Shown: positions 3,480 through 63,016 of the stretch, piece after piece
Numbering within the stretch: position 1 is the first letter of the stretch
How the letters are laid out: every line of letters begins with the position of its first letter
IMG/VR virus record: IMGVR_UViG_2675903231_000002
DNA length: 64,000 nt
Direction: 5' to 3' (one strand)
DNA from: an uncultured virus (IMG/VR IMGVR_UViG_2675903231_000002)
Lineage: Duplodnaviria > Heunggongvirae > Uroviricota > Caudoviricetes
Position numbers and translations under genes: made by a program
Notes under the pieces: generated by a model
Told to the model about the DNA's origin: nothing
Database searches by the model: none
The model's input: only the letters and a program-made list of their open reading frames with translations

Positions 3480-4136
3480 TTATTCAACTGCCTGAATGCA
3501 CTCCGGCACGTCGTTCCGAGGATTCCCGACGAGTTTAGGCACGCGGTACCAAACCATATCATCGGCAGGGTAGGGCTCCAGGATCGGCAGCAGTTCGTCC
3601 AGACTGTGTGCGGCACGGTCAAGGTACAGGTCGTAGTCCTGCTTTCGAAGTATTACCGGCATCCGGTTGTGTAACACCGACATGGCAAGATTGGACTCGC
3701 ACGTGAGTATGCTGCACGTGGACAGAGGACCATTTGGCGAGTCCCACGTATCGTAAATACCGGCAAGCCCGAAGAAGTCGCTGCTCTTGACTCGGATTCG
3801 ATACGGCTCCTTGGTGTTTCGATGCCACTCGTAGTACCCGTCGCACGGCACAATGCACCGTTTGCGCTCCACCAACCGCCGCAAGACAGGATTGACTTTC
3901 AGTGTCTCCACCCGCGTGTTAATGGGCTTCGGACCGCCTCCGTCCCACGCCGCCGGCTGAAGCCCCCATTTGAGCGCCCCGAACCGGCGCTCGGTTCCGT
4001 CGGAGAGGATGGCCGGGATCTGCTGGCTGGGGGCGATGTTGTAGCGCAGCGGATAGTTAGCCGTGACTCGACCCAGGCGGAAAAACTTGATAACCTCCGA
4101 CCAGTCTTCGTACGCGAAGGAAAAGCGGCCGCACAT
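3480..4136 (-). CDS. SOS response-associated peptidase (SRAP/HMCES, YoqW-like)
   Basis: N-terminal MCGRF, YNIAPSQ, RCIVP.DGYYEW and HNRMPVIL motifs. Confidence 0.95.
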   Translation of the reverse strand: MCGRFSFAYEDWSEVIKFFRLGRVTANYPLRYNIAPSQQIPAILSDGTERRFGALKWGLQPAAWDGGGPKPINTRVETLKVNPVLRRLVERKRCIVPCDGYYEWHRNTKEPYRIRVKSSDFFGLAGIYDTWDSPNGPLSTCSILTCESNLAMSVLHNRMPVILRKQDYDLYLDRAAHSLDELLPILEPYPADDMVWYRVPKLVGNPRNDVPECIQAVE

Positions 4137-4148
4137 CCTCAGTCACCC

Positions 4149-5066
4149 CTAGCTTATCCAACGGCACTCGGCCGGATCTTTGCCTGGTACAAACCCGCGG
4201 AACGCAACCGTACGAAGGTGGTGCCGTTCCGTCCGTTCAAGGTACTGTATCTTGCAGCACAGGACGGGCGCAATCCATTGCACATCGCGGTCCTTCGCCG
4301 TATGGATCTCCTTTGCTACCTCAAGAAACGCCGTTTTCTCTTCAGCTTTGAACCCGTATTCCACCACCGCCACTGGCTTGTTCCGAACGGTCGGAAAGTG
4401 TAGGCCAACGACAAGGCCAAACTGTGGTTCGCGACGATACCCGAGGATTACGGCGTCGATCTCCTTCCAGTTCTTGATCTTCAGCCAGTTTGTCGTCCTC
4501 GTATCGGGAATATACAGGGAATCCTTACGCTTGGCGACGATGCCTTCCCAGTTCCTTTGCTCAGTCAGCCTCTTCATTTTGATACCGGCTCCGTCAACAA
4601 ACATCGTCGGTGTGAGAATGTGGGACGATTGGACCAGGTCAAAGAGTCGCTGCTTGCGGTACAGGAGCGGTTCGTTCATGTGGCTCCTGTCGGTGTACAG
4701 TACGTCGAACGCAACAAACGTCACGGGGTGCGTTTGCATGGCCCGATGAATGCGGCGAGGATCCTGGATCCGGCCGCGGTATTGGAAGTCGTCGAACACA
4801 CTCCGGCCGTCACGGAGGCAGATGCCTTCACAGTCGAGAACGGCAGAATAGGCACGGATGGCACTCGCAACCTCACGGAGTTCCGGGAAGCGGTCTGTGA
4901 CAATCCTGCCGTTGCGTGTGAAACCCTCCACACGGTCTCCCTGCTTGTGCAACAGGATCCGCCAGCCGTCCCATTTGGGCTCGAAGATGTAATTGGGATC
5001 GTCGAATGCTTCCATGTGCATGTTCGGAAGCATGGGATTGATCGGAGTAAACAGCATAGGCCTCAC
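4149..5066 (-). CDS. ATP-dependent DNA ligase (LigD ligase-domain / LigB-like)
   Basis: EPKWDGWR adenylation motif, AFDVL, EGIVAKRKDS.Y, WLKIK. Confidence 0.92.
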   Translation of the reverse strand: MRPMLFTPINPMLPNMHMEAFDDPNYIFEPKWDGWRILLHKQGDRVEGFTRNGRIVTDRFPELREVASAIRAYSAVLDCEGICLRDGRSVFDDFQYRGRIQDPRRIHRAMQTHPVTFVAFDVLYTDRSHMNEPLLYRKQRLFDLVQSSHILTPTMFVDGAGIKMKRLTEQRNWEGIVAKRKDSLYIPDTRTTNWLKIKNWKEIDAVILGYRREPQFGLVVGLHFPTVRNKPVAVVEYGFKAEEKTAFLEVAKEIHTAKDRDVQWIAPVLCCKIQYLERTERHHLRTVAFRGFVPGKDPAECRWIS

Positions 5067-8830: not shown

Positions 8831-9244
8831 ACCACAAGTGAAAAATCTATAGACTTAGAAAAATAGACTTAGAAAAATGCCGATTCCAGCAGCTAAGATG
8901 CTGACTTCATTACGCACCTTTGGCGGAGCCCAGAAGAGCACCAATTGCGCCGCCAGATCGAACCCCAAGCCAAAGATGAGCGCGATTAGTACCATCTTTA
9001 CTATCTGCATACATCAACATCCTCCCGCACTCAGTTTCGAGTCGTTCGTCATCTCGTCTTATCCTCGATGTCATTGTATCGTGTAATACGAACATAATAC
9101 GAGCGTAATACACACGTTATATCTGATTGTTCTGGCGAAATTTCCGTTTAAGATAATCTCCGTTTCTGCATTTGCATCTCTCCCGATTCTCCCCGCTTGG
9201 CCGCCGGGGAGACTGATTTTTCCCCGCGGCTGGGGATCGGGAAA

Positions 9245-9690
9245 ATAAAAAGGCAAGCGCTAAAAGGCATCTCGACACTTGGATTGATCCAAGAATCCAG
9301 ACGCTTGAAGCGCTTGCCCTTTAACTGCCTTCGGCTTACGCCGTCCAGCGGATTCCCTACTACATCTTTGCGACTTCCTTCACCCCGTCACCGGTCGCAT
9401 TCGGATGATCAACGGGGGATCCAACATCTGTCCCCGGATACCGTCTCGTTCAGTGAGACTGGCTGCTTCGTATTCGGGTAATCCCATCGACCTGATTGCC
9501 AAGGTGGTGATGGGAAGATGATAATGCGTCACAGACTAAAGCGACCTCGCAGAGCGCCCCGACTCGACAGTTGCTGGACCTTTCCAGGAAAGTGGCGCGC
9601 CTTTCCATCGCTCACTTAGTGAGGATCCAGAACTCCGGCACTCACCCTCTTAGGGGCTACAACGTGCCTTCAAACATCTTCTGAGTACAA
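9245..9690 (-). ncRNA. Candidate large structured ncRNA (about 440 nt)
   Basis: No credible ORF; TTGCGC-17-TATGAT promoter at 9723-9695; many short hairpins; closing stem followed by a U-tract. Confidence 0.4.
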
Positions 9691-9847
9691 GGCTATCATA
9701 CTTCAGAATTATCTCAAGCGCAAAACATCTGAGGAAAAATTGACGCTTTGATAACAAAAGTAGGGTGAGATACCCACGAATCTTTGATGGCGAGGGCATT
9801 TCTTCTGAGAAAGATATATCATGATAGTTGATCCTACACGGTCCTGG

Positions 9848-10046
9848 GTTGCATCAGAACAACCATCTCACGGAAAGCCCAATCGAGGATTTGTTGTCAT
9901 ATTGCGGGGCCGCTTGTCAAGAAATCCGTATCAAGCATTCGAGCGAAAAAACATTTATAGCATTTGTTTTCATATGTACGGGACTCATTGGTCATCGGGA
10001 GGCAGTAACCACTGCATCAGAAAACCCAGTTAGGACTTGTATCTTG
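9848..10046 (+). CRISPR. Degenerate 3-repeat mini-array in opposite orientation to array 1
   Basis: GTTGCATCAGAA...GAGGATTTGTTGTCAT (9848-9900), ...TTTGTTTTCAT (9937-9973), ACTGCATCAGAAAACCCAGTTAGGACTTGT (10011-); 36- and 37-bp gaps. Confidence 0.55.
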
Positions 10047-10075
10047 GCTCGGGAAACCGAATGGCTGAACATCAT

Positions 10076-10235
10076 CAGTCTATCCCGGCGTGGAGACCCC
10101 TGCCTTTAGGTATGAGGAGGAAGCGCCGCCATCAGCAGTGGCATGGCTGCTACCGGCGGGCTGCTGTCAGCCAGCCTATCGTGCCAGCTGTAAGGCTAGG
10201 TGCAAGCCCCGCCCTTAAGGACTGGGGTAGCTTAC
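10076..10235 (+). mobile_element. Non-autonomous miniature IS200/IS605 derivative (PATE-like): left end fused to the tnpB 3' end and right end
   Basis: Near-identical to the reverse complement of 18790-18847 (left end) joined to 17577-17679 (tnpB 3' end and right end). Confidence 0.9.
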
Positions 10236-10288
10236 GTCGTTTTCTGGTGCAACAAGCAGGGCAATGAAATCCTTCACAACGGCCAAAG

Positions 10289-10757
10289 ATGACAACAAAT
10301 CCTCACGTAAGTTTTCTGATGCAACCCGGCGAAGGGTGGGAAAACCGGTGAGAGTAGCGAAATGGAAACAAGTTGTAACACAGGTTTTCTGATGCAACAT
10401 CGCATGATGCAACACCTTGGCCGCCCGTACATCGCATGGAAACAAGTTCTCACATAGATTTTCTGATGAAACAATCCGGGCGGTCAGTGGCTCTGGGAAG
10501 GCGATGGAAACAAGTTCTCAAGGTAGATTTTCTGATGCAATGTTGGCTGAAGACATCACCCATGTTCAAGCCGAGCTATGTAAACAAGTCCTCAAGTAGA
10601 TTTTCTGATGCAACGAGCGTCAGCCTATCGCACAGTATGAGCTCACTTTTATGTAAACAAGTCCTCGTGTAGATTTTCTGATGCAACAAGGTCATCGGTC
10701 CCGGATAGGCAGGTCTCAAGCATGTAAACAAGTCCTCATGTAGATTTTCTGTGCAAC
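10289..10757 (-). CRISPR. CRISPR array 1: 7 repeats of about 37 bp, 6 spacers of 31-37 bp, plus one older interrupted repeat ending at 10253
   Basis: Plus-strand consensus ATG(G/T)AAACAAGT(T/C)CTCAnnTAGATTTTCTGATGCAAC at 10289, 10362, 10436, 10504, 10578, 10651, 10722; directly downstream of cas6; strand inferred from cas orientation and the decay gradient. Confidence 0.92.
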
Positions 10758-10777
10758 CCTTCGTTTACGATTACGTA

Positions 10778-11605
10778 TTAGACCTCATATTCCCAGAGTT
10801 GCGTCGTATCGGATTGACACCATGCCTCCGTGTGGACAGCCCCGCCAGCGCTGAGTTGGATGCAACGCTCCCACAGTGTGCCCCATCCCCAAGTGGTTCC
10901 GGAAGCTATCCCCCATAGTGTAGCCATCTGAAGCCACACGTGACCATCTGCCACTACATCCGGCCGACCGTGATACATGACTTGGCCCACGAATCCATGA
11001 CATTCGAGTTTGTACCCCTGACGATTTGTATGTGACGTCTGCATTACAGACCCATACTGCATGCCAGGAACCAGTGAAGACTCGTCATACCAGATGAAGC
11101 TGTTGGGTGCCAGCTTCAGCGAGAACCACTCTCGTGCCATGGTGGAGAACTTCTGTCGCGTTAGTGGGATGAGCACATCCATGCGCGGCGGTTGGCGAAA
11201 GCTGAAACGGATATTCTTGCGCGCCAGGTACTTCAGTGTGTTCTCGGCGTAATAGACGGGCGTGATGAACTGCACGTACAGTGTGTCTCCTTCCGCCTCC
11301 TCGTAACGGACAGAGACGTGTTCCGCCTCCGGGTATGCGAATCGCACAACGCTTTGCATCTCTTCATCTACCGCAGGCACCCATGCGATTCGCACGTGTT
11401 GCCCATCCAGGTCAGGAAAGACACGATATGGGCTGGTCTTTCGCACGCGATTGTCCCACCAAGCGGGCATTCCTGCCGGCCGGCGGGCCAACAGGTCACC
11501 TATCTTGGATCTAACCAGACCCGCATCTGTTCCAGGAATTCGAACCACCTTTGTTTCGACCATCATTTTCTGAACAGCCTCTTTTGGGCTGAGCGTGTCA
11601 AGCAT
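10778..11605 (-). CDS. cas6: Cas6-like crRNA processing endoribonuclease
   Basis: 'VQFITPV', 'GFVGQVMY' and C-terminal G-rich loop 'WGIASGTTWGWG'; ATG overlaps the recD stop; adjacent to array. Confidence 0.75.
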   Translation of the reverse strand: MLDTLSPKEAVQKMMVETKVVRIPGTDAGLVRSKIGDLLARRPAGMPAWWDNRVRKTSPYRVFPDLDGQHVRIAWVPAVDEEMQSVVRFAYPEAEHVSVRYEEAEGDTLYVQFITPVYYAENTLKYLARKNIRFSFRQPPRMDVLIPLTRQKFSTMAREWFSLKLAPNSFIWYDESSLVPGMQYGSVMQTSHTNRQGYKLECHGFVGQVMYHGRPDVVADGHVWLQMATLWGIASGTTWGWGTLWERCIQLSAGGAVHTEAWCQSDTTQLWEYEV

Positions 11606-13637
11606 TCTGCGCTTCCTCCTCCCACACGACGGCCGCCGGTGCAAGGACTGCACCTGCCTGTTGAATCGTTCGCTCAAGTGCGGCGTTGAGGCGACGTGTA
11701 AGACGATTGTCGATTGGCGGAACCTTGGCTTCTCGCACCTGGCGTACCATTTCATCCGGGTTTTTTGCCATCACCGTCAGACTCGTCTTGGCCCGGGTTA
11801 AAGCCGTGTACAAAAGCCGCGGATCCTCATATGCCTCTGGCATCACGACAAGAACGTGGGCTCGTTCAGCGCCTTGCGCCTTGTGGATGGTGAGTGCATA
11901 TGCTAGAGACCATTCATCAATGGCTTCCATCTCGTCCAATGTGGTTTCGGTGTCATCGTCAAATCGGGCCGTGATGACGCCATCATCGACGCTTACAATG
12001 ACACCCATCTCACCGTTTTTTCGACCAGTGGTGTAGTTGGGAGCGTTCTGCACGATGCGCAAGCCCGGGCGCCATTTGACGTCGCCGCCGAGAAACCAGC
12101 TATTGATCTGCTGTTGACCAATGGTCCGCGTCTCCGTCGCATCCCGGAACGGCGTCAGAATCAGCCAATCAGTCGCATCAAGACCGCCATGTTCCTCCAC
12201 CCACTGCATGATCTTCTGCCGCCAATGCTCTTCGGAGTCTGTCTCAATGGCAATCGCATTTATTACCGGCGGATGCCATGTCCATGGCTGGTCGATGTCC
12301 CAAAACCGGTGCGCCACTTCAGCTAATGAGCCAGCTGAACGATGAGGAACCGACAGCGTTCTGGAGGCTCTTGATACGATTGGATGAGTCAGACAGGTCC
12401 GGAATGGCTGACCGAATCCGACAGGTGGCAGTTGATTCGCGTCCCCGATGAAGACCACACGCAGATTGTGGTGTGTGAGTGTGGACCACACAATCGCGTG
12501 GAAGGTTTGCAGGTCGCACATGCTGGCCTCGTCAACCACTATCCATTGGTCCTGTCCGGAGGCCGGGAACGACCCTTTCTCCACACGTGACGAATGGTTA
12601 AATAGAGCATACGCGGAGTGAATGGTGAACGCCTGAATATCTGCCACGTCACGCAAGCGCTTGGCGGCAAGGCCCGTTGGTGCAAGACCGGTAACGGCAT
12701 CGTTCATACCGAGCTTGCGGGTCGTGTCTGCCAAGGCCTTCACTAATGTGGTTTTGCCCGTCCCGGGCCCGCCTGTGACCATGGTCAAGGGCTGTGTCCA
12801 CATGGCTGCCAGGGCTTCCTCTTGTGAGGTGTCTAGCGCCAATTCACTGACCAGCGAGGACCAATTTTGCGGCAACGAAAACGAGGGCCTGCGTATGTGC
12901 TCCGCCAAGGCCTCCGCGATCTGAATTTCTGACCAGTAGGCCCACTGTGGGTACAGGCGCAGTTTTCCGCCAACTTCCTGGTGAACTGCGGGAAACGGCG
13001 TGTCGAGTCGTTTGTCAGACGGATAAATCGCCCTCCAGTTCTCAACGAGTCGGCGCGCGTATTCTTCTGCTTTGCCGTTGTGCCGGCCGAGGTACCGGGC
13101 GGCCAATTGCACGGCGGCGCTGGATTTGGCGATGCGGATCACGGAATTCCCCGATTGCCACACGTGCCCGCATGCAGCAACGAAAAATCCTCGAATCCGC
13201 TTCTCTTCCAAGCGTGTCTCGTGAGCGTACTTGGCGTCGATGATCGCCAACTCAGGCAGAGACAAGGCTTGGCCGAGTACATATGGGTTCGTCTGAATTT
13301 CCTCCACACAATGCTGTATTGACGTAGCGTGATTGTGTGCAATCTCCTCGACGGCGTTGAGCAGAGTCCCGTATGGAATGCCCGTTGATAATACCTCGTT
13401 CAAGTGTTCGTGGATGAGCCCGTGGATTTGGTTGCGGCACCACCGCGCGGTCCACTTTCGAACGGAATCAGGGATGTCCAACGGTGCATTGAGCACCCAC
13501 TGAGGAGTGGGAAACGACATGTCTTGTGTCAATGCACCTTCTTCTCTCGCTTTCATGACCGCGGCCAAAAAAATGCGTCCGTAAGGGTGCTTGTCCAGTT
13601 CCGACATCCAGTTCGACGAACCGGAGGACTTTTTCAC
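11598..13637 (-). CDS. recD: RecD/RecD2-like SF1B helicase associated with type IV Cas genes
   Basis: GGPGTGKT, LAPTGLAA, VVDEASM, IGDANQLPPV, AYALTIHKAQG, LLYTALTRA; GTG overlaps the csf3 stop. Confidence 0.92.
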   Translation of the reverse strand: MKKSSGSSNWMSELDKHPYGRIFLAAVMKAREEGALTQDMSFPTPQWVLNAPLDIPDSVRKWTARWCRNQIHGLIHEHLNEVLSTGIPYGTLLNAVEEIAHNHATSIQHCVEEIQTNPYVLGQALSLPELAIIDAKYAHETRLEEKRIRGFFVAACGHVWQSGNSVIRIAKSSAAVQLAARYLGRHNGKAEEYARRLVENWRAIYPSDKRLDTPFPAVHQEVGGKLRLYPQWAYWSEIQIAEALAEHIRRPSFSLPQNWSSLVSELALDTSQEEALAAMWTQPLTMVTGGPGTGKTTLVKALADTTRKLGMNDAVTGLAPTGLAAKRLRDVADIQAFTIHSAYALFNHSSRVEKGSFPASGQDQWIVVDEASMCDLQTFHAIVWSTLTHHNLRVVFIGDANQLPPVGFGQPFRTCLTHPIVSRASRTLSVPHRSAGSLAEVAHRFWDIDQPWTWHPPVINAIAIETDSEEHWRQKIMQWVEEHGGLDATDWLILTPFRDATETRTIGQQQINSWFLGGDVKWRPGLRIVQNAPNYTTGRKNGEMGVIVSVDDGVITARFDDDTETTLDEMEAIDEWSLAYALTIHKAQGAERAHVLVVMPEAYEDPRLLYTALTRAKTSLTVMAKNPDEMVRQVREAKVPPIDNRLTRRLNAALERTIQQAGAVLAPAAVVWEEEAQNA

Positions 13638-14305
13638 TCTGATTCCCTCCATACAGCGTCGTAACTGCGTACTCGGCACAGTACGGGCTCGTGATGGAAA
13701 TACGGTGGCTCGATGGCGTGGGCGTCAAGGATTCCTCGGAACCCGTTCTCTCTTGCATAAGATTCTGGAACGGGTCGGAGAACAAGACTGTCAACGCCAG
13801 CGATTGCGGAGTTGAGATCCGGCCGGCGTCGCAAGATTGCTCTGGCGATCCGGCCCATCCCACGCTGTCCCTTTTGCCCCACGTACATACCAGGAAGTCT
13901 CTGCGCTAGGCGAGCGAACTCGTCCACTTGCTCAGCGTCCACATCGACGAAGAAGTACAGGAGCGGGACAGACAGGTACGTGTATCGTACCATGGCACCG
14001 CGGAGAATCCCTGAGCTGGTCTCAATGGGTTTGAAAAACCACGGGGTGCCCTTGAAAACCGCTTCTTCCCCAGTTTCCATGGTTGGTGCAAAGAGTGCTG
14101 ACACCGCCCAGAACTGGCCATCTTGAGACTCGAAACGTCTCACTGGCAAGGAGATTGGTTCCCATTGGTCCGGATCGCGCCGGTTTGCCGCGTCCGGATA
14201 CAGTTCCCGCGCACGTGCTGCGAATAAGAGTGCGTCTCCCATCAAAACGCCCCTGCGCGGCAGGAAGACTGGTGCCTCCAAAAAGAGGCGGACCTCGAGG
14301 ATCAC
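13634..14305 (-). CDS. csf3: Type IV Cas5-like RAMP
   Basis: RAMP N-terminal strand, 'GQKGQRGMGRI' G-loop, 'LRPVP', 'PPYF'; position after csf2. Confidence 0.8.
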   Translation of the reverse strand: MILEVRLFLEAPVFLPRRGVLMGDALLFAARARELYPDAANRRDPDQWEPISLPVRRFESQDGQFWAVSALFAPTMETGEEAVFKGTPWFFKPIETSSGILRGAMVRYTYLSVPLLYFFVDVDAEQVDEFARLAQRLPGMYVGQKGQRGMGRIARAILRRRPDLNSAIAGVDSLVLRPVPESYARENGFRGILDAHAIEPPYFHHEPVLCRVRSYDAVWRESE

Positions 14306-15234
14306 GACACGGACACTTCCTTCATGGCGACGTAGAACGGCTCCTTATGGGTCAGGAGGAAGTGCAGCATGTCCCTGTTTTGTCTGACATACTCTGTGAA
14401 CATTGACGGATCCAGACGTTCATCTTCCGGAATTCGTTCCCAGGACACGAGGCCAAATCCGCTCTTGGATTTGCCGCCGAAAAACGGCCGGTTGCGAAGC
14501 CGCTCAATTGCCAAACCCATCATGCTCCAATCCATGGGCGTTGCATTGTCGTGGAGCGTGAAACGCACGACAAACGGATAACCAGGCAGCACATATCCGT
14601 GAGTTACCGGCATGTTGCGGAATGGGTTCTTTTTGCCCTCTTGGTCATCAGACACCACTTCAGGCAGTCCGATGAGGGAAGGCATTTCCGGCATGCGATA
14701 GGTTGTCCAAGCACCGTTGTTGGTGAAGCTGTCCTTCAGTGCAAAGTCCTCAAACCAATCGTCCGGGAGCGTGGGAAAGAGAACTCGTAGCTCGTTTGAA
14801 GCCGGATATGCGTGTCCCAGGGCGCACCGACTGGTAATAAATTGACCTCCAACGACACCACCTAGCAGACCAAACATCGGCAGCAGCTGCTTAACCTTCT
14901 CCACATCATCCAACGACAGACGCACCTCGTTTGTGATGAGCACCCCGCCACTGGTAAGCGTGTGGTACGTGATCTTCTGGCCGCGCGTTCCATGTCCGTA
15001 GAAGGACACAGGATCGATCCCCAGTTCCTCAAAGAGATACCCGGCCAACTCCCGGCGAATACGGCCGCCGAAGCTGTTGCCGGAGAGCACCGGAGCCTCC
15101 ACGGGCGCTTCCTCACCCGTGTACACTTTGAGGGTTCTCAGTATTCCGCGGGACTCACCTTCCTCTCGCCGCGATTCAATCGATTGGAACAAGGGGGTGA
15201 GAGTGCGAAAACGCAGGTACAGATCACTCGGCAT
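14302..15234 (-). CDS. csf2: Type IV Cas7-like backbone RAMP
   Basis: 'TLTPLFQ', 'PVLSGNSFGGRIRR', 'LTSGG', 'FGLLGG', 'GGKSKSGFG'. Confidence 0.85.
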   Translation of the reverse strand: MPSDLYLRFRTLTPLFQSIESRREEGESRGILRTLKVYTGEEAPVEAPVLSGNSFGGRIRRELAGYLFEELGIDPVSFYGHGTRGQKITYHTLTSGGVLITNEVRLSLDDVEKVKQLLPMFGLLGGVVGGQFITSRCALGHAYPASNELRVLFPTLPDDWFEDFALKDSFTNNGAWTTYRMPEMPSLIGLPEVVSDDQEGKKNPFRNMPVTHGYVLPGYPFVVRFTLHDNATPMDWSMMGLAIERLRNRPFFGGKSKSGFGLVSWERIPEDERLDPSMFTEYVRQNRDMLHFLLTHKEPFYVAMKEVSVS

Positions 15235-15937
15235 GGGATTCCATCTCCTTTTTCCGGTGTGTCATGATAATGGCCCGAGTCCAATCTCTTAGTGCTTCCT
15301 CTAACGGTTCGAGAATGGGATCGAGCGTACTGCGGATCTCCTTTGGCTTGGGGTACCCATTGATGCGCCAGTCATTTTCGAGCGCCGCAACGCGCTCCGC
15401 GATATCTGCTGGCGCGTACATTGGCTTGGAACGCCAAACAATGATCCAATTCGGATCGTAACAAACTTTCCCACGGAAGATGGTGTGCTTTTGCTTGTAC
15501 GATCCTTCGACCGCGACAGCCAAGAGCGGGCGAATGCGAGGAATCCTGTACCACGGAAGCTCATATGTGTCCCACGGGAAGAACGAGGTGAAATCCTCAC
15601 CTTTTGTGCCATATGCGAGGAAGCTCCACGCATTTGGTGCATTCTGCAGTCCAAATGTGAACATGAGTGCGCATGACTCACACAACCAGGGCGACATGAC
15701 TGGGAAGTAGTCATGGTCAGTAAATGTGGTCAGCAATATGTCACTTCGTGCATACGCTTGTCGTACGCGACGAGTGCAAAAGGAACACCGGGCGTCCACA
15801 TCGTGAGGGGGATGGTCGATCTTCCAGTCGGTACGAGTTTTAACGTGTTCGGCAAACAGGTCGGAAAGAAAAATCAATTTTCCACCTTCTCTGCATGTTC
15901 TATCGCAAGTTTGGGGAAGCGCTGTTCCCTGCGTCAT
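15224..15937 (-). CDS. csf1: Type IV Cas8-like large subunit
   Basis: Zn-binding CSFC...CESC pairs and 'KQKHTIF' motif; first gene of the csf operon. Confidence 0.75.
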   Translation of the reverse strand: MTQGTALPQTCDRTCREGGKLIFLSDLFAEHVKTRTDWKIDHPPHDVDARCSFCTRRVRQAYARSDILLTTFTDHDYFPVMSPWLCESCALMFTFGLQNAPNAWSFLAYGTKGEDFTSFFPWDTYELPWYRIPRIRPLLAVAVEGSYKQKHTIFRGKVCYDPNWIIVWRSKPMYAPADIAERVAALENDWRINGYPKPKEIRSTLDPILEPLEEALRDWTRAIIMTHRKKEMESHAE

Positions 15938-17273: not shown

Positions 17274-17543
17274 TCATCGTAATCGTTCCGCTTCGACCTT
17301 TCGAAGGTATTTCAACAGCACCGTGCCATGCCATCCTCCCTGGTCCCAATTGATATAGGCACTCTTCCCTGTTAGGGACAGTCCGTCTATGGTGCCGCGC
17401 CCCCATTCCGGGTGCAGTCTGTGGACCACACGGTCGCCTTCTTTGAATGGCGGCGTCTCAAAGTACGCTGCAATCCTTGCTCGCAGCTCCTCGGTAAGGC
17501 CTTCTTCATGAACCCGACGCAATAGTTTCTCTGCTTCAGTCAT
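17274..17543 (-). CDS. small SH3-like (DUF3553-type) protein
   Basis: 'FKEGDRVVHRLHPEWGRGTI'; AAGGAGG RBS. Confidence 0.55.
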   Translation of the reverse strand: MTEAEKLLRRVHEEGLTEELRARIAAYFETPPFKEGDRVVHRLHPEWGRGTIDGLSLTGKSAYINWDQGGWHGTVLLKYLRKVEAERLR

Positions 17544-17576
17544 GTCTCATGATCCTCCTTTATCCTGCGAAATTAC

Positions 17577-18847
17577 GTCAGCTACCCCAGCCCTAAAGGG
17601 CGGGGCTTGCACCTAGCCTTACGGCTGGCACGATAGGCTGGCTGACAGCAGCCCGCCAGTAGCAGCCATGCCACTGCTGGCAAGGTACTTCCGGGCAATG
17701 TTGCGAGCCGCGTTCAAATCAGCATTCAGTTCAAATCCGCAGTTCCGGCACAAGAAGCGTGATTGCGTCCGTCGGTTAGAACGGTGGACGTATCCGCAAC
17801 ATGAGCACATCTGCGACGTATGGCGAGGGTCAATGCCAACGACAACGCAACCCTTCTCCACCGCCTTGTATTTCAGGAACGAACGTAATTGTGCAAACGT
17901 CCACGAATGCAAGCGGCGGCGGGACTCTCGTCCGCGTTGCTTGACGCGCGTGCGGATGTGATTCAAGTTCTCGACGACAATCACAGTGCCGGGTTCAACG
18001 GAATCGACGATACGCCGACTGAGAACGTGGTCGCAATCGCGGCGGAAGCGGTGAACCTTCCCGGACAGGCGGCGCAAATGCCGCTTGGCCGAGCGAGTGC
18101 CTTTCGCCTGAAGCGCACGCTTCAATCGGAAATACCTGCGGTCAATCTCTTTCCAACGCTTCTCACCGAGGAAGTTGGCGGTGGATGTGACAGCGGGATG
18201 GTTCAATCCCATGTCCACGCCGACGACATTCCCGGTTGGGGAGAAGGAGGCATCTGGAATGGTCACCACGAGATGCAGCCAAAACCGGCCCTTTCGATAG
18301 ACCAGATCGGCGCTATCGAAGCCAGTAGCTTGAGCGAGGAGACGATCCGCATGTGGATTGCGAGCGAATTCAACCGACTGACGGCTTGCAACCGTAGAAA
18401 GGCTGACAACACTCGCGTTCGGGTGAAATGTGTATGTCCGCGCATCGTACCGGATCGGGACCAAGTTCCCGTGGGGGCAAGACGTCTTGCTGCCTTTCTT
18501 CAACCGGTTCAAAGCGGACTTGACGGCCTCCGTCGCACGCACCCGCGCGGCAATCAAAAGTTGCGCAGGCAAGTCCGGATGTTCCACACGGAGAGTGCGG
18601 TACGTCTCGTGGTGCAGCGTCACACCGTTCTTACAACGCTTCTGCCAGCCAACAGCACAGACAGCGTTAAAACAAGCGGTGTGCTCCACGAGGGTCCGCA
18701 ACAGAATTTCCTCCTGTTTGGTTGTGGGTTTCAACAACAATCGGATCGTTCTCCTCATATTTCATACCCTAGCACATTTCGCAGAAAGAGGATGGCGACG
18801 CTCCTCCCCATGCCTAAAGACAGGGGTCTCCGCGCCGGTATAGACTG
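17577..18847 (-). mobile_element. IS200/IS605 family, IS1341-type (tnpB only) element 1
   Basis: Subterminal hairpins (ggagacccctgtctttaggcatgggg at left end; gccccgccctttagggctgggg at right end); ends in TGAC and is preceded by TTAT. Confidence 0.85.
17619..18758 (-). CDS. tnpB: RNA-guided endonuclease TnpB
   Basis: RuvC D-E-D (VGVDMG, VVENL, NADLNAARNI) and zinc finger CSCCG...CRNCG. Confidence 0.95.
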   Translation of the reverse strand: MRRTIRLLLKPTTKQEEILLRTLVEHTACFNAVCAVGWQKRCKNGVTLHHETYRTLRVEHPDLPAQLLIAARVRATEAVKSALNRLKKGSKTSCPHGNLVPIRYDARTYTFHPNASVVSLSTVASRQSVEFARNPHADRLLAQATGFDSADLVYRKGRFWLHLVVTIPDASFSPTGNVVGVDMGLNHPAVTSTANFLGEKRWKEIDRRYFRLKRALQAKGTRSAKRHLRRLSGKVHRFRRDCDHVLSRRIVDSVEPGTVIVVENLNHIRTRVKQRGRESRRRLHSWTFAQLRSFLKYKAVEKGCVVVGIDPRHTSQMCSCCGYVHRSNRRTQSRFLCRNCGFELNADLNAARNIARKYLASSGMAATGGLLSASLSCQP

Positions 18848-18937: not shown

Positions 18938-20141
18938 GTCATGAACCCCAGCCCTAAAGGGCGGGGCTTGCAGTTGTAGCCTGCGCTATACCGCGTACGG
19001 CTGCATGACTTCAGCCCTACGGCGAATGTTCACCGCAGCGATGGTGTCGGCTGGGCCAGCGAACCCACATTCGACACACTCAAAATTATCCCTTGTGGGG
19101 CGATTGCGTTTGTCCGCATGACCGCAGCTTGGACATGTTCGAGATGTATTGCGCGGATCGACGAACACCACGGGCACACCCGCCAAACGTGCCTTGTACT
19201 CGATGAAGAAGCGAAGCTGATGGAATGCCCAGGAATGCTGGGTGCGACGCTGAGCCTTGCGAACCGTTATCCGGTCACGAATGCCCTTGAGATCTTCAAG
19301 TGCAATCCCGCGCCCGGTGTCTTTGGCTTTCGCAACCAGCACTTTCGCAATGCGATGGTTTACGTTGGTGGCGAAACGGGCTTCCTTGCGGCGACGCTTC
19401 TTCAGCAGACGCTTGGCAGACTTTGTGCCTTTCGATTGCAGGCGTTGGCGAAGGCGTGCGTGGCGATGGCGCAGTCCGTTCACGTGCCCTCCAGAAAACA
19501 CCTCGCCGTCGCTGTCTGTCGCGATGTTCTTAATGCCCAAGTCCACGCCAAGAAATCCATTTGGAGCACCTTGTGGTGGATCTGGGACATCCACAACGAC
19601 AGCGAGGTAGAAGGTGCCATCGCGGTAAATCAGGTCGGCTTGTCCACGAATCCGCTGGAGGCGTGCAGCCTGGTACTCGCCAAACAAAATGGGGACCAAG
19701 ATGCGGCCGCCAAGCGTTAGGATGGACACGCGATCAAGACCTTTCCAAGAAAGGAGGCGTTGGTCATATACGATGGCGCCATGCGGCTTGAATGTCGGCT
19801 TTATCGACTTGTCTCGCTTGTACGCTTCGCACGCCTTAGCGATAGCACGGACGGTCATTTGGGCTGAAAGCCCAAATTCCTTGCGGATACTGTCGTACAC
19901 GAGCTTTTGCAACCGGATCTTGTTTGCAGTGCGATGTTCGAAAGCCACTTCCGCAATCGCATTGCAAGCCGCATTGAACCGTTCCATCGTCTCAAGCAAC
20001 GCTTGGTGCTGTTCAGTTGTGGGTAGCAGCTTGACCATCAACGTCAGGTTCATGCCGTTATTATAGCACAAATCGTTCAATACAATAAGAGCGCGTTTCC
20101 TCCCCATGCCTAAAGACAGGGGCTTCCGCGCAAATCATATG
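18938..20141 (-). mobile_element. IS200/IS605 family, IS1341-type element 2
   Basis: Same terminal hairpins as element 1; right end in TGAC; left boundary approximate. Confidence 0.8.
18986..20053 (-). CDS. tnpB: RNA-guided endonuclease TnpB
   Basis: LGVDLG, IALEDL, ADTIAAVNI; CPSCG...CVECG. Confidence 0.95.
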   Translation of the reverse strand: MNLTLMVKLLPTTEQHQALLETMERFNAACNAIAEVAFEHRTANKIRLQKLVYDSIRKEFGLSAQMTVRAIAKACEAYKRDKSIKPTFKPHGAIVYDQRLLSWKGLDRVSILTLGGRILVPILFGEYQAARLQRIRGQADLIYRDGTFYLAVVVDVPDPPQGAPNGFLGVDLGIKNIATDSDGEVFSGGHVNGLRHRHARLRQRLQSKGTKSAKRLLKKRRRKEARFATNVNHRIAKVLVAKAKDTGRGIALEDLKGIRDRITVRKAQRRTQHSWAFHQLRFFIEYKARLAGVPVVFVDPRNTSRTCPSCGHADKRNRPTRDNFECVECGFAGPADTIAAVNIRRRAEVMQPYAV

Positions 20142-53485: not shown

Positions 53486-54949
53486 TCAACTGGACTTCCG
53501 GAATAAATCAATCACTTCCTGCGGCACTGGCCGACCGCGTACCTTCTCCACTTCATGCACCACGTCCTGAAGCGTTGCCACAAACTCTTGACCGCTTTGG
53601 CGGGCCAACACAGCCCTGCGACGCAGGTTTTCGGCGACTTGGTTCACTTCAGCTCCGCTCGCACCTTGGAACAACACAGGTATATGGACCAAATAATCAT
53701 CACCGAATTCGGCCGAGAACTTGACGGGTTTGGTCCATCGCCACCACATCACGCGGATGTCCACATCGCTTGGGTTTGGCACATAAATCTTCGTTCCCAA
53801 GCGCCCCGGCCGAACCAACGCCTCATCGAGAGCCTCGATCCGGTTGGTGGCGGCAATCACAAATACCTGATCTCGTTGTTCGAATCCATCCAGTTCCGCC
53901 AGTAACTGATTCAGTTGGCTGTCGTGGTACGGGTTCATGCCGCCCCGTTTGCCCCCGATGGCGTCGATCTCGTCGATGAAGATGATCGCCGGAGCATGTC
54001 GTTTTGCTTCTTCAAATAAGGAAGTGATGTTCTGCTCCGTGGCCCCGACAAGGGTGCCCTGCAGGTCACTGCCTCGCGCATAGATGAAATACAGCCCGAG
54101 ACTTTCAGCGACCGCCCGGGCGAGGGCAGTCTTGCCGTTTCCGGGCGGCCCGTACAATAGAATCCCTGCCCTGACCGGAACGTCGTATTGCTCCATGAGT
54201 TCGCGGCTCTTCAGAGGCAAGAGTATAGACTCCCGGATCTCCTGAACCACGTCTTGCATGCCGATGATCTTTCGAAGCGCGTCGGGATTCGCCTGATATT
54301 GCTTACCCTTCTCCCTCCAACGGACGCGACCGTTGGCTGTTTCATTCTCCGGCTGCTCCATTTGCGAAGAAGTAGGATCAGGCCGGTACTGTTCACGCCA
54401 ACGCATGCTCTCTTGGAATTGCCGGGTCATCCCACTTCGGTCGTGACCAGATCCAAGCCTACCCTTTGTAGAAGCCCTAGCCGCAGGAAGATGTAAAGCC
54501 CGAGCAAGTAGGGCCCGGCGACGCCTCGCGCGCGAGAACTCCTTATCGATCCAGGCACCGAGATCCGGATCCCGGTCGGCGCGCCAGGACAGCAGGGTGT
54601 ACATCTCGAACTTGGTGATGAGCGCGAAGAGCTGGGTCGGGCCAATCGAGAGATAGTTCAGTACCCCCCAAACGAGGAAGGCCAGGCCGTACGCCTCCAA
54701 CGTTCCACCAATCCCCAATGACGGCGGGAGATGCAGTGGATGCCACCCCGTGAAGACGGCAAAGAAAATGTTGTAGAAAATGAGGAAAGCCAGCCAAATG
54801 GGGCACACGAAGCGCCACCAGAACTGCAGGTAGCGACCAAAATCGAAGTACCAGAATCCAAGGCTATAGATAGCACTTGGAAATATAGACAAGAGAAACA
54901 AGATGCCGAGAGACACCTCGACCTGCATTTTCAGCAACGTCACGTTCAT
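53486..54949 (-). CDS. Membrane-anchored AAA+ ATPase
   Basis: N-terminal TMs; GPPGNGKT, IFIDEID, AATNR...LDEALVRPGR. Confidence 0.88.
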   Translation of the reverse strand: MNVTLLKMQVEVSLGILFLLSIFPSAIYSLGFWYFDFGRYLQFWWRFVCPIWLAFLIFYNIFFAVFTGWHPLHLPPSLGIGGTLEAYGLAFLVWGVLNYLSIGPTQLFALITKFEMYTLLSWRADRDPDLGAWIDKEFSRARRRRALLARALHLPAARASTKGRLGSGHDRSGMTRQFQESMRWREQYRPDPTSSQMEQPENETANGRVRWREKGKQYQANPDALRKIIGMQDVVQEIRESILLPLKSRELMEQYDVPVRAGILLYGPPGNGKTALARAVAESLGLYFIYARGSDLQGTLVGATEQNITSLFEEAKRHAPAIIFIDEIDAIGGKRGGMNPYHDSQLNQLLAELDGFEQRDQVFVIAATNRIEALDEALVRPGRLGTKIYVPNPSDVDIRVMWWRWTKPVKFSAEFGDDYLVHIPVLFQGASGAEVNQVAENLRRRAVLARQSGQEFVATLQDVVHEVEKVRGRPVPQEVIDLFRKSS

Positions 54950-56972: not shown

Positions 56973-57941
56973 TTATAGGCCGATGCGAGCTGCGGCATTG
57001 GCACGGAACAGGTTTCCGTCTCGTATGTACCGTCGTACCATCATGACACTCCTGTGACCTGTCTGAGCCATTATTTCTCTTTCAGACGCCCCAGCCATTG
57101 CGGCGGACGTGGCCAGCCCAGCCCGGAGGCTGTGTCCAGCGTATTTCCGGGCGTCCAAACCGATGACTGTCGTGTACTTCTTGACAATACGAGCCACCGT
57201 TTTGTCAGAGAGGCGATCTGTGCCAATCTGACGATCCTTGGTCACCCTGCGAAACAGGGGGCCCGACGAAATTCCCGACTCCTCCAACCAGGCCTGCAAC
57301 GTGCGCACGGGACAGGTCTCCAGGTAAGATCCGTACGGAATCCCCACCTTTCGGCCTTCACCTTCCTGGTCCGTCTTACTGCGGCGCAGCGTTATGATGA
57401 GTCCTTCACGAGCGAATTCGACGTCTTCGACATTCAAGGAGACCAGTTCGGATCGCCGAAACGCCCCGGCAAACCCAATCAGAAGTAGTGCTCGATCCCG
57501 CAGCCCCATCAGATCGTCTGGCGCGTGCCGCAGCATTCTTCGAAGGTCCTCCACGAGCACAGGGGATTTGCCGTTTGGGGCAACGCCAATCGTGTTCCGT
57601 ATGCCTCTCCAGACGGCTTTCACGTTTTCGTCGGACGCAGGTGACGGATATCCCTTGGCTTTGTGGGCCAGGCCGATGGAAATCATGCGCCGTCCAATCG
57701 TGCTGGCCTTGTACCCCTCGTCTGCCAGATACGAGAGATACAACGCCACGGTGGTTGGATGTGCGGGCAACGAACACACCCCCCGTTCATCGCACCAACG
57801 GGAAAAGGACTGCCAATCGGACTTGTACGCCTTGACGGTGTTCTTCGCCTTGGAGTGGCGCATGTAATCGTGTGCGCTCTCCACCAGTTTTGCCACCGAT
57901 GTTGTCGCTTGTTGAGTTGGCTGCGGAATTCGGTCAGGCAT
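56973..57941 (-). CDS. Tyrosine recombinase/integrase (Cre-like)
   Basis: RDRALLL..FRRSEL, RSKTDQ, GHSLRAG, TGHRS...RY catalytic residues. Confidence 0.95.
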   Translation of the reverse strand: MPDRIPQPTQQATTSVAKLVESAHDYMRHSKAKNTVKAYKSDWQSFSRWCDERGVCSLPAHPTTVALYLSYLADEGYKASTIGRRMISIGLAHKAKGYPSPASDENVKAVWRGIRNTIGVAPNGKSPVLVEDLRRMLRHAPDDLMGLRDRALLLIGFAGAFRRSELVSLNVEDVEFAREGLIITLRRSKTDQEGEGRKVGIPYGSYLETCPVRTLQAWLEESGISSGPLFRRVTKDRQIGTDRLSDKTVARIVKKYTTVIGLDARKYAGHSLRAGLATSAAMAGASEREIMAQTGHRSVMMVRRYIRDGNLFRANAAARIGL

Positions 57942-57955
57942 GCCTCAATCGCCCC

Positions 57956-58007
57956 CTGGCAAGGTACTTTCGAGCAATGTTGCGAGCCGCGTTCAAATGA
58001 TCATTCA
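57956..58007 (-). pseudogene. tnpB 3' fragment (LNAARNIARKYLA)
   Basis: 57956-57998 matches 17677-17719 at 41/43 bp; both differences are synonymous. Confidence 0.85.
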
Positions 58008-58055
58008 AGTGATCTGATGCACAGTAGATAGCGTGCAGCAGGCCGAAAAGAGCTC

Positions 58056-59059
58056 ATGGCAACAAATTCTCACTTCGATTTTCTGATGTACCCCGTATTG
58101 CGGCCACGCTTGACCATCTTGTAGATCTGATAACAAATGCCAATATATCTTTTCTGATGTACCGCTCTTTCGGGAGCATTGTGAGCGCCTACACCCCATG
58201 GCAACTAATTGCCACATAGATTTCTCTGATGAAACCAAGACGATGGCGACCGGACTTAAGCGTGTCGACCGTCCACAGCCGTATGGTCACGTTCAAATAG
58301 TAACAACTTCTTACTCGGCTTTTCTGACGCGACTAAACCGTGGAGATCACCGTCGACATGCACGCGCCTATGGCATAAAAATTCTCACGGAGATTTTCTG
58401 GTGCAACGCGTTACGGCGCCGGACCTTGAGACTGGTTCGCCGGCTATGGAAACAAGTTCACAAGAAAGTTTTCTGATGCAACAAGATGGAGTTCGCGGCG
58501 TTCGCGGAGGCCGTCATCTGGAGATAAATTCTGAAGTAATTTTCTGGTTGTCACCGACCTGGCTAGCGCCAACTGGTGCATGCGATGGAAACAAGTTCTA
58601 ACGTAGTTTTCTGATGCAAACCTATAGACGGTACCGATGTGCCGGTGGATCACGGAATGGAAACAAGTCCTCACGTAAGTTTTCTGATTCAACATGACGC
58701 ACGGTTCCTCGAACACTCACTGGGATCGGTATGGAAACAAGTTCTCAGGTAAGTTTTCTGATGCAACGAACTCTCCCGCGCGGTCAAGCAGGCGCAAGTC
58801 AAATGGAAACAATTGCTGACATAAGTTTTCTGATGTAACTCTGTCCGGCTTCACCACGATGCGGGTCTGGATCTCATGGAAACAAGTGTTCTAACATTGG
58901 TTTTCTGATACAACGGCGCAATCAATCGGTGGCTGGCCGAGGTGCTCCAGATGGAAACAAGTTCTAACATAAGTTATCTGATGCTACAGCCCACACCCGA
59001 TCCCGCGGTTGCCTCTTTGGTTATGGAAACAAGTTCTAGCATAAGTTTTCTGATGCAAC
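58056..59059 (-). CRISPR. CRISPR array 2: about 14 repeats of the same family as array 1, decaying toward low coordinates
   Basis: Repeats at about 58056, 58127, 58198, 58297, 58370, 58446, 58518, 58585, 58657, 58731, 58803, 58876, 58951, 59023; consensus ATGGAAACAAGTTCTnACnTAAGTTTTCTGATGCAAC. Confidence 0.92.
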
Positions 59060-59088
59060 CCTTCGTTTACGATTACGTATTAGACCTC

Positions 59089-59311
59089 CCGGATTAGCAC
59101 CATGTCCCCGTGCGGACAAGACGCTCTGCTGCCTTTCTTCACGTGCTCACGAGGGTCCGCAAGAGAATTGCAATCTGCTCGATTGTGGGTTGCAATAGCA
59201 ATCGAATCGTTCTCCTCACATTTCATATGCTATCACCTTTCGCAGAAGGAGGATGACGGCGCTCCTCACCATTCTTATAGGAAAGGGTCTCCACATCGGG
59301 TATATGAACAG
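59089..59311 (-). pseudogene. Decayed IS605-type left end plus tnpB 5' fragment with internal deletion
   Basis: Translates MRRTIRLLLQPTIEQIAILLRTLV then KKGSRASCPHGDMVLIR, matching TnpB at 17619..18758; upstream DNA aligns to 18759-18847. Confidence 0.88.
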
Positions 59312-59699
59312 ATGACCCCAGTCGAAGAAAGTCGCGGTCGAAAGAAACGATACCTGCCTCCGCGTCCCGACTCCGACACACCAGGTAAGCATCTGTGAAA
59401 TCGACGTTCTGCTCCGCGTACATTGTAAGGCTCTCCGTTAAACGGTCTTTGTCTTCGCACATGATTCCTTCGAGCAGCAAAACCTCCGCCAATGCACGAG
59501 CGACGTCCGAACGGTTTCTGACGTACACCGGGCCAGTCAGTACGTAAATGCACTCGGCGAGAACCATTGGCTCAATGTAGAGAACGAACTCACCATGTTC
59601 TGCCTGCTCAAACACATTCACCGCCGCATGATACATTCCTTCATGGTCACGCAAGAGATACCTGAGAATGATATTCGTATCAAGAAACAAAGTTTTCAC
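59223..59699 (-). CDS. vapC: PIN-domain (VapC-like) toxin
   Basis: FLDTNIILRYL, LAE, DFTDAYL, SFDRDF; C-terminal tail runs into the IS left end. Confidence 0.9.
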   Translation of the reverse strand: MKTLFLDTNIILRYLLRDHEGMYHAAVNVFEQAEHGEFVLYIEPMVLAECIYVLTGPVYVRNRSDVARALAEVLLLEGIMCEDKDRLTESLTMYAEQNVDFTDAYLVCRSRDAEAGIVSFDRDFLRLGSSVHIPDVETLSYKNGEERRHPPSAKGDSI

Positions 59700-59980
59700 T
59701 GTTGTCCTTCCTCCTTACCGGATAAACGAATACCCAATTCCTCTTGAGTTCTCTTGCGTGCCTCATCAATCGGAATGTAAGGTGTTCCTTCCTGATAAAG
59801 AGAACCGCCCAGCTCACGAGCAGACTTCTTCCGAAGTGGACGAATCAATATCTCCCCTTGGTCCGTATACTGAAACATCACCTTATCTCCTACTCTAAGC
59901 CCTTCCTTCTGACGAATCTCCAGCGGTATGGTGATTTGAAACTTAGAGGTTATTGTGCTGATGTGTATCATGTGAATCAC
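59696..59980 (-). CDS. AbrB-type antitoxin (VapB-like)
   Basis: 'STITSKFQITIPLEIR...GDKV'. Confidence 0.88.
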   Translation of the reverse strand: MIHMIHISTITSKFQITIPLEIRQKEGLRVGDKVMFQYTDQGEILIRPLRKKSARELGGSLYQEGTPYIPIDEARKRTQEELGIRLSGKEEGQQ

Positions 59981-60181: not shown

Positions 60182-60898
60182 GTGAATCGATTTGATCCTG
60201 AATACATTTTAATGGAATCTGTAACCACTTATAATAATCGATTTCCTAGTAAACGTGATTACCATTCAGCGGCACGTGGTACGTCTTACCCAACCGTTGC
60301 CATGTTGATCGATAAGTATGGCAGTTTCAACAATTTCGTTGAATCATTTCTCAAAACGTATATCTCTGTACACGAATGTCCACTGCCGGATTATTTGCTT
60401 GGATGCCTTGCCTATCGCGCCAAGGTTGTTCGTGATCGACGGCGCTTTCATGTGCGCTTTATAACGAAAGACATCGAACAGATCCGAGTGCTTCAGTCCT
60501 TTGCCCAGCACATGCAAGTCTACCCGTCAAACAAGCACAAGCCCACATTGTACGTACGCCTGTATGACACATATCTCGTCACAGGTTTAGAACGATTTTA
60601 CAATGGTTATAAATATTTCATCCCCAGTATAGATTTTGTACGCGGTTACATTGAGACTCACGGGCATTTTCGTGTTGAAGCACCAGGGCGGTATCGCTTA
60701 ACACTCACAGGGCCACTTGTACCGCTGTGTCGTGACTTTCTGGTAGGTGTGGGTGCCCGCAACACCCGGCTGTATTCGGTTGGCAGTTCTTACCGATGGA
60801 ACATTCAAAGCGGCAGTTTGCGGAAACTTCGCGATACTTTGTATCCTGATGGTTGTGTGTGCAATGAACGTGTGCGGATGATGATGTACAAGGCCTGA
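60182..60898 (+). CDS. Degenerate LAGLIDADG-like protein
   Basis: 'YLLGCLAYRA' and 'FVRGYIETHG' resemble the two LAGLIDADG helices; low GC. Confidence 0.5.
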   Translation: MNRFDPEYILMESVTTYNNRFPSKRDYHSAARGTSYPTVAMLIDKYGSFNNFVESFLKTYISVHECPLPDYLLGCLAYRAKVVRDRRRFHVRFITKDIEQIRVLQSFAQHMQVYPSNKHKPTLYVRLYDTYLVTGLERFYNGYKYFIPSIDFVRGYIETHGHFRVEAPGRYRLTLTGPLVPLCRDFLVGVGARNTRLYSVGSSYRWNIQSGSLRKLRDTLYPDGCVCNERVRMMMYKA

Positions 60899-60944
60899 AA
60901 AGACGAGAGCCGGCCTGGGCCGCATCGACCCTGGCCGGCTCTGT

Positions 60945-61271
60945 TCACGCATCTTCTCCTGTTCCGCTGCCATCTGGTAGGTTTTGCGCCTCCCACTCGG
61001 AAATTGCTTCGAAGGCATTCCCGACGATGTCTTCATCATCCAGCCCCCGAACATCAAGAACTGCTATCCGAATATCTTGCTGTGGGTACGGCCGGCGGCG
61101 GAAGATGGTGAGATACAGATTTTCCTCCACATCTACGCTGTCATAATGAATTTCCTTCGGAGAATCGAAGAGCGAGCCTGAAATGCCTTGACCGTCATCG
61201 TGAACACGTAATTGTCGAGATTGACCGTGCTCGTATCGTTCTTCACACGGACACCTCCAGTAATTGTTCAA
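60945..61271 (-). CDS. acidic hypothetical protein
   Basis: Follows the ThiF gene in the operon. Confidence 0.5.
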   Translation of the reverse strand: MNNYWRCPCEERYEHGQSRQLRVHDDGQGISGSLFDSPKEIHYDSVDVEENLYLTIFRRRPYPQQDIRIAVLDVRGLDDEDIVGNAFEAISEWEAQNLPDGSGTGEDA

Positions 61272-62987: not shown

Positions 62988-63016
62988 GTTCCATGTCTCC
63001 TTTTGGTTTAGATGAT

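Follow-up and report, generated by a model that had tools for sequence, protein, structure and literature searches.

A gene-less IS200/IS605-family remnant with most of a predicted omega-RNA core in a type IV-D CRISPR trailer repeat

The window analysed here, which is the first 64 kb of the 91-kb contig C49 in a 3.79-Mb assembly of 95 contigs, contains on its minus strand a full set of type IV-D cas genes that adjoin a CRISPR array (array A), two tnpB-bearing elements (elements 1 and 2) and, in pieces around another array (array B), a third element copy (Table 1). At the leader-distal end of array A, the last repeat is split by a short sequence, denoted the mini-element below, in which the left end of element 1 is joined to its right end.

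Table 1. Coordinates of the features of the locus in the window
Feature	Position	Strand	Details
Degenerate inverted repeats	9846-9903, ~9940-9975, 10011-10047	+	tail to tail with array A; pairs I1-I6
Left part of split trailer repeat	10061-10075	+	last four bases (10072-10075) are TCAT, a target/TAM-like motif
Left-end part of mini-element	10076-10132	+	57 nt, 88% identical to 18847-18791 (minus)
Right-end part of mini-element	10133-10235	+	103 nt, 95% identical to 17679-17577 (minus)
Right part of split trailer repeat	10236-10253	+	repeat family D2; the guide if the right end is transcribed outward
CRISPR array A	10289-10757	-	seven repeats of 36-37 nt, period ~73 nt, most degenerate at the 10289 end
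29-nt leader-proximal piece	10758-10786	-	100% identical to 59060-59088; also beside the C68 array
Type IV-D cas genes	10778-15937	-	PADLOC; weaker agreement from NCBIfam and Pfam
cas6-like gene	10778-11755	-	PADLOC Cas6, 6.1e-6
recD-like helicase	11598-13679	-	PADLOC typeIV_RecD (RecD_0_IVD), 6.4e-55
csf3	13634-14305	-	PADLOC typeIV_Cas5, 2.9e-18
csf2	14302-15234	-	PADLOC typeIV_Cas7, 2.5e-36
csf1	15224-15937	-	PADLOC typeIV_Cas8, 2.7e-6
Element 1 (likely parent family)	17577-18847	-	left end, tnpB 17619-18758 (379 aa), right end; no tnpA
Element 2	18946-20122	-	tnpB 18986-20107, 373 aa, 36% identical to TnpB1
Third element copy, fragments on both sides of array B	57956-59311	-	colinear, more diverged

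The csf1, csf2 and csf3 genes, Cas6, the array and a RecD-family helicase that replaces DinG together make up a type IV-D locus as this subtype is characterised by Pinilla-Redondo et al. 2019 (PMC7038947). One repeat is common to three arrays in the genome, namely array A (at 10.3 kb), array B (58056-59059) and an array on contig C68, and in all three, the well-kept repeats adjoin the 29-nt sequence CCTTCG...GACCTC whereas the degenerate repeats lie at the opposite end. Of the four protospacers identified, two are perfect matches on C70, another contig of this genome, and two are in relatives; their flanks on the right side of the plus strand (GAA, GAA, GAG and AAA) are equivalent to TTC, TTC, CTC and TTT located 5' to the protospacers in the crRNA sense. 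Three lines of evidence (the location of the 29-nt leader piece, the end at which the repeats decay, and the protospacer flanks) thus indicate that array A is read on the minus strand, which places positions 10240-10253 in the last, oldest repeat; on the same evidence, the mini-element is antisense to the array, as had been proposed in the original prediction.

The two array A spacers with perfect matches in the same genome (10542-10577 and 10615-10650) correspond to C70 positions 13594-13629 and 54105-54140, each with a GAA flank (TTC in the crRNA sense), and the targeted frames are ORFs of 328 and 284 aa. The GC content of C49 is 55% and that of C70 is 54%, compared to 63% for the genome. 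Apparently, judging from these sequence matches, a type IV-D-bearing mobile element targets a co-resident one; a low-GC contig with spacers matching another low-GC contig fits the plasmid-versus-plasmid picture outlined in PMC7038947. Unlike the type IV-D loci described there, the leader of array A is cut to about 40 nt and lies beside a 29-nt tnpB-like fragment. This fragment, which lies at 10809-10837 where the cas6-like ORF has its 3' tail, shows 83% identity to a tnpB fragment at 59090-59118, which suggests that an old junction of a truncated leader with a tnpB fragment is common to arrays A and B.

The degenerate repeats on the other side of the mini-element were rejected as a candidate tracrRNA-like anti-repeat region, given that the cas genes are of type IV and include Cas6. 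One of these copies (9846-9903) has ends identical to those of the repeat at 10289, with the central 9 nt replaced by 25 nt at the exact spot where other repeats have TCAT.

The protein encoded by element 1, TnpB1, matches the Pfam families OrfB_IS605 and Cas12f1-like_TNB and scores 194 bits against the NCBIfam guided_TnpB model (cut-off 100); it contains the motifs GVDMG, VVENL and ADLNAARNI along with the zinc-finger cysteines, and its best solved relatives are TnpB/Cas12f-type chains. The TnpB that the original prediction placed 7 kb from the mini-element is encoded 7.4 kb away and, with its RuvC motifs in place, appears to be intact. Element 1 and TnpB1 are each present in a single copy in the genome, and the left and right hairpins of element 2 are identical to those of element 1. 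The relatives used in the alignments are two metagenome lineages (at 75% and 53%), G030 (73% identical at the protein level), G351 and Methylacidiphilum contigs. A phylum-wide DNA search with the right end yielded matches in 10 of 401 genomes, the source genome included, among which G351 was the only usable relative, the matches other than G351 being to the hairpin alone. In the plasmid collection, element 1 matched one Gloeobacter plasmid (64%), and among viral contigs, only one distant TnpB (31% identity) was detected, with no match to the right-end pattern. With regard to tnpA, there are three matches to Y1_Tnp in the genome, two of which are cut by contig ends (C46 and C66), the third being on C66. 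The tnpB copies on contigs C75 and C86 are followed by right hairpins identical or nearly identical to that of element 1, and a search for contig overlaps that would join the tnpA contig ends to C75 or C86 found none.

The mini-element occupies positions 10076-10235 (160 nt) and is a gene-less remnant of the tnpB-only IS200/IS605-family element 1. In BLAST comparisons against both the window and the whole genome, its right part aligns with the minus strand of element 1 over 103-105 nt (E = 6e-44), and its left part (10074/10076-10133) aligns with 18849/18847-18791 on the same strand over 60 nt (E = 1e-15), in agreement with the earlier view of this sequence as the left end plus the last 100 bp or so of element 1. 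The right-end part comprises the last 20 codons of tnpB, the TAA stop codon (10191-10193) and 42 nt that extend to the right end; apart from these codons, neither a tnpB gene nor a transposase gene is present. The right end is fixed at 10235 by an alignment in which element 1, the mini-element, G030, L041/L043, L042 and G351 all terminate in ...GTAGCTKAC, and the left end is CAGTC immediately 3' of TCAT, so that the limits 10076 and 10235, as predicted, are exact.

Both ends retain imperfect, subterminal hairpins with the extra-helical T of element 1 and one added mismatch each. The left hairpin (10097-10117) reads CCCCTGCC-TTTA-GGTATGAGG, with one C.A mismatch relative to element 1, and is three mismatches away from the element 1 form; the right hairpin is at 10207-10227. 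Terminal inverted repeats are absent, as is characteristic of non-autonomous IS200/IS605 elements. The internal junction, GCCATC|AGCAG, corresponds to 57|1169 in element coordinates, with GCCA shared with the element 1 sequence TTGCCAGCAG, and 35 nt of the left end that separate the hairpin from the start of tnpB in element 1 are deleted. A search of the entire 3.79-Mb assembly found no further copies of the mini-element, the matches being to itself and to the ends of elements 1 and 2. The mini-element is gene-less and retains the tnpB 3' end and the right end together with the conserved RNA core located there (see below), and its classification as a derivative of element 1 is upheld.

Removal of the insert joins ATGGCTGAACATCAT to GTCGTTTTCTGGTGCAAC. 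The right flank is unambiguously the 3' half of a repeat: 10240-10256 is 82-94% identical to five other copies, and the spacer that follows the right repeat half is 35 nt long, compared to 32-37 nt elsewhere in array A. At the joint, TCAT|GT lines up in register with ...CCTCATGTAG..., the variant of the repeat found at 10722. The 15-nt left flank is only weakly repeat-like, with equal or better scores obtained for 54 of 1000 shuffled sequences and for 47 of the 355 TCAT-ending 15-mers of the contig. Therefore, the prediction that excision leaves a degenerate repeat at the normal spacer distance holds, and insertion into a repeat is indicated mainly by the right half, the register and the spacing, given the weakness of the left half. 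A possible 13-nt similarity between 10056-10068 and tnpB was judged to be no better than chance and was discarded.

The flanks, ...ATCAT and GTCGT..., are not duplicated. Among 8 distinct insertion contexts of this element family, 7 have TCAT before the left end (TTCAT in 5 of them), whereas element 1 itself is preceded by TTAT. Such a conserved short target on the left and the lack of a target duplication are hallmarks of insertion by IS200/IS605-family elements. No empty site was found in any of the 40 relatives searched, all of which lack the array (the matches were to protospacers or to pieces of transposons), and the plasmid collection contained no match to the mini-element locus or to the region 9742-11800.

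The question then is whether the element was already miniature when it inserted. A full-length copy could have landed in the trailer repeat and lost its interior in place, a route that we regard as a genuine, if tentative, possibility: the mini-element is a single copy and so does not belong to a family of identical mini-elements, and the GCCA shared at the junction fits a microhomology-mediated deletion. Transposition of a mini-element would give an identical sequence, and thus the data do not separate these two routes.

The RNA encoded at the right end was modelled from six full-length relatives (five of them distinct), whose last 112-118 nt were aligned. The resulting model consists of stems P1-P4 and a pseudoknot formed by the P2 loop, GUCAGC, with the last six bases, GCUGAC, and includes 38 pairs. 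Among the five distinct relatives, 96.3% of the cells are paired under the model, compared to 23-43% when the partners are slid by 1-3 columns, and 8 pairs show changes on both sides, a number reached by 2 of 500 shuffles, whereas every slid control has a single such pair. With so few sequences, and with the model having been built from these five distinct ones, this covariation amounts to support rather than proof. The conserved core is about 105 nt long and starts at element 1 base 17681. The right part of the mini-element starts two bases later, that is, two bases inside P1, so that nearly the whole core is present. To the extent that the model holds, "omega-RNA-bearing", the term used in the original prediction, is a fair anatomical description of the mini-element, the 103 nt of which would contain almost all of the conserved core.

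The mini-element keeps 33 of the 38 pairs, compared to 37 of 38 in element 1. The two outermost pairs of P1 are replaced by left-end sequence, such that one is lost and the other is a wobble pair, and a third P1 pair is broken by a substitution. In the 6-bp pseudoknot helix that adjoins the guide, a central pair has become C-T, and a pair of the right-end hairpin is C-A, whereas P2, P3 and most of P4 are intact. Four of the five right-end substitutions fall in columns that are invariant across all six full-length rows, but any argument for decay from this observation involves very few changes and is close to the neutral drift expectation, with about 60% of the columns being invariant. A scan of the whole window with Rfam at gathering thresholds gave no matches, and loose scans of 17450-17950, 9700-10800 and 9100-9800 gave sub-threshold matches only. 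One of the latter, to HEARO (the IscB omega RNA) at 17577-17718 on the plus strand, opposite to tnpB (22.1 bits against a threshold of 83, E = 0.016), was not used; the first 30 positions of this match mirror the right-end hairpin and the terminal GTCAGC/GCTGAC helix.

If the right end were transcribed outward, the guide would consist of 16 nt, GTCGTTTTCTGGTGCA. A scan of the whole genome for near-matches to this guide adjacent to TCAT found none with up to 2 mismatches in 12 positions, 4 in 16 or 5 in 20. The repeat closest to the guide (58603) has 2 mismatches in 16 positions and lacks TCAT, whereas the two TCAT-bearing repeats (10722 and C68:969), when read directly, match the guide at just 7 of 16 positions due to a 1-nt offset. 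Action of the guide on CRISPR repeats is therefore not supported: neither a repeat nor any other genomic site combines TCAT with a near-match, and the absence of a TAM-adjacent match in any repeat is the very result that had been named in advance as evidence against such action. Furthermore, a consensus scan of 9500-10900 found no sigma-70-like site (1.1 expected). With 5 of the 38 pairs lost, a left-end segment deleted and no promoter-like site found, the claim that the mini-element is a working stand-alone omega RNA is not sustained either.

Such an RNA, expressed from the plus strand, loaded in trans into TnpB1 and acting in self-retention or, via its repeat-derived guide, on the array, nevertheless has some points in its favour. 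The beginning of the retained 103 nt nearly coincides with that of the core, P2, P3 and most of P4 are intact, TnpB1 looks intact, and omega-RNA-bearing elements that are served in trans have been described, namely the PATEs, which "often encode omega RNAs" and for which the TnpB of other elements must act in trans, according to the preprint of Meers et al. 2023 (PMC10055086). In addition, the TnpB of ISDra2 works with a 116-nt scaffold in which the pseudoknot involves the nucleotides immediately upstream of the guide, as stated by Nakagawa et al. 2023 (PMC10097598). However, the pseudoknot beside the guide has a broken central pair, in a column invariant in the six rows, the outer two pairs of P1 consist of left-end sequence, the left-end segment between the hairpin and tnpB is gone, no promoter-like site was found in 9500-10900, and the only TAM-adjacent match of the guide in the genome would be the hypothetical empty site. 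We therefore consider a working omega RNA of this kind quite unlikely.

The reading that we favour, with a probability of about 0.68, is that the mini-element is a non-autonomous, PATE/MITE-like deletion derivative of the element 1 family and most likely an inert relic. The element lies 3' of TCAT in a degenerate, leader-distal type IV-D repeat, pointing against the crRNA strand, at a place in the array where an insert would presumably carry no cost. Both end hairpins and almost the entire RNA core are retained, in a single, slightly decayed copy that lacks a recognisable promoter and is probably inert. Should it be transcribed and loaded into TnpB1, the guide GTCGTTTTCTGGTGCA would be predicted to recognise only the rejoined empty site, TCAT+GTCGTTTTCTGG..., and with the empty site as the only target, its activity would amount to the usual homing role of TnpB rather than to action on other repeats. 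Two considerations weigh against inertness. Since the scaffold needed by ISDra2 is only 116 nt long (PMC10097598), TnpB might still be bound by 103 nt that retain 33 of the 38 pairs, and read-through from upstream could be a source of transcription.

The third element copy introduces a further complication with regard to origin. On one side of array B, which is 48 kb away from the mini-element, this copy consists, at 59311-59089, of TCAT, the left end and 5' parts of tnpB with an internal gap; on the other side, there is a 3' piece of tnpB at 58007-57956, possibly extending to about 58035. Between these fragments lie array B, with some 14 degenerate repeats, and a 29-nt leader piece. No cas genes adjoin array B; to the right, at 59223-59980, there is a PIN/MazE-like gene pair. 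The third copy stops at the position equivalent to element 1 base 17677, and the right part of the mini-element begins at the equivalent of 17679, so that the two points agree within 3 nt in a 1271-nt element; this coincidence of junction and truncation, seen in the alignments, hints that the sequence was rearranged and did not arise by simple deletion.

The mini-element might accordingly be an inversion chimera with breakpoints at 10132/10133 and 57955/57956, in which a truncated left end was joined to the right end of the third copy, and which was never mobilised as a unit. Beyond the stop of the third copy, local alignment detects no significant homology, with 203 of 300 shuffles scoring as high, and inverting 10133-57955 back would restore a continuous tnpB 3' end and right end. 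The gene for a tyrosine recombinase (56973-57941; Phage_integrase, 1.2e-17) abuts the 57955/57956 breakpoint, starting 15 nt beyond the stop, and the left end of the mini-element is 88% identical to element 1 compared to 78% to the third copy, so that the two parts could differ in origin. An inversion does not readily account for the fact that both flanks of the mini-element fit one repeat, in register and at the normal spacer distance, or for the correct mutual orientation of the left and right ends, and its breakpoints would be at non-homologous positions of the two copies. On balance, we consider the inversion unlikely; if it did occur, it would alter the origin of the mini-element but not its capabilities.

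A broader interpretation is that the physical interweaving of one IS605-family lineage with type IV-D arrays is more than debris. Array A ends in the right-end (omega-RNA) module of the element, while its leader abuts the 29-nt tnpB-like fragment, and array B lies, colinear, between the 5' part of the third tnpB copy, with its left end, and the 3' piece. If this arrangement were not debris, the arrays may travel, and be transcribed, as part of a TnpB transposon; alternatively, it could be a natural snapshot of a transposon landing at a pre-existing array, which would be a way for a TnpB scaffold to come to read array-derived guides. We deem either version very improbable. Should the repeated physical association of this element family with type IV-D arrays prove non-accidental, it would carry more weight than the mini-element itself.

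The derivative that we favour resembles several known elements. The PATE-like elements of Geobacillus stearothermophilus are likewise gene-less and keep both ends, their right end overlaps the omega-RNA scaffold, and they need TnpA and TnpB in trans; as a family, they differ from the mini-element, which is one slightly decayed copy inside a CRISPR repeat (comparison with PMC10055086). In ISDra2, as in the mini-element, the scaffold is formed by the tnpB 3' end and the right end, the guide is the flank, the pseudoknot is formed just 5' of the guide, and a scaffold of about 110 nt is enough (116 nt, compared to a core of about 105 nt here); the differences are that the pseudoknot partner is about 103-105 nt upstream, whereas the P2 loop here is about 65-70 nt upstream, and that the TAM is TTGAT as opposed to TCAT/TTCAT (PMC10097598). 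The MITE HqIRS37, in a residual CRISPR locus of Haloquadratum walsbyi HBSQ001, is also a miniature element in a decaying array; according to PMC3119063, HqIRS37 resides in a spacer of an array that lacks cas genes, whereas the mini-element is located in a trailer repeat next to a full complement of type IV-D genes.

A literature search for similar elements in type IV-D trailer repeats found no published example. The mini-element is a new instance rather than a new kind, given that gene-less omega-RNA elements of the IS605 family and MITEs in CRISPR arrays have already been described. It is an ordinary, if well-resolved, case: the usual short target chanced to lie in mid-repeat, and the insert is now decaying, with a repeat-derived guide that has nothing to cut. 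For a little-sampled TnpB lineage, the analysis yields as by-products the TAM (TCAT/TTCAT), the precise ends of the element family and an omega-RNA core backed by covariation.

Several other features of the contig were observed in the course of this analysis. A 574-nt stretch (9168-9741) is duplicated at 81168-81744 of C49 with 94% identity; the two copies share no ORF, and a search for Rfam matches at E up to 1 found none for this duplicate except for one at the chance level. At 3480-5066, on the minus strand, a gene for an SRAP (SOS-response-associated peptidase) protein adjoins a gene for an ATP-dependent DNA ligase. Finally, adjacent genes of the ThiF, prokaryotic JAB/ubiquitin-like and E2 family D types at 60182-63754 form a ubiquitin-like conjugation cluster of a kind that is linked to defence systems.
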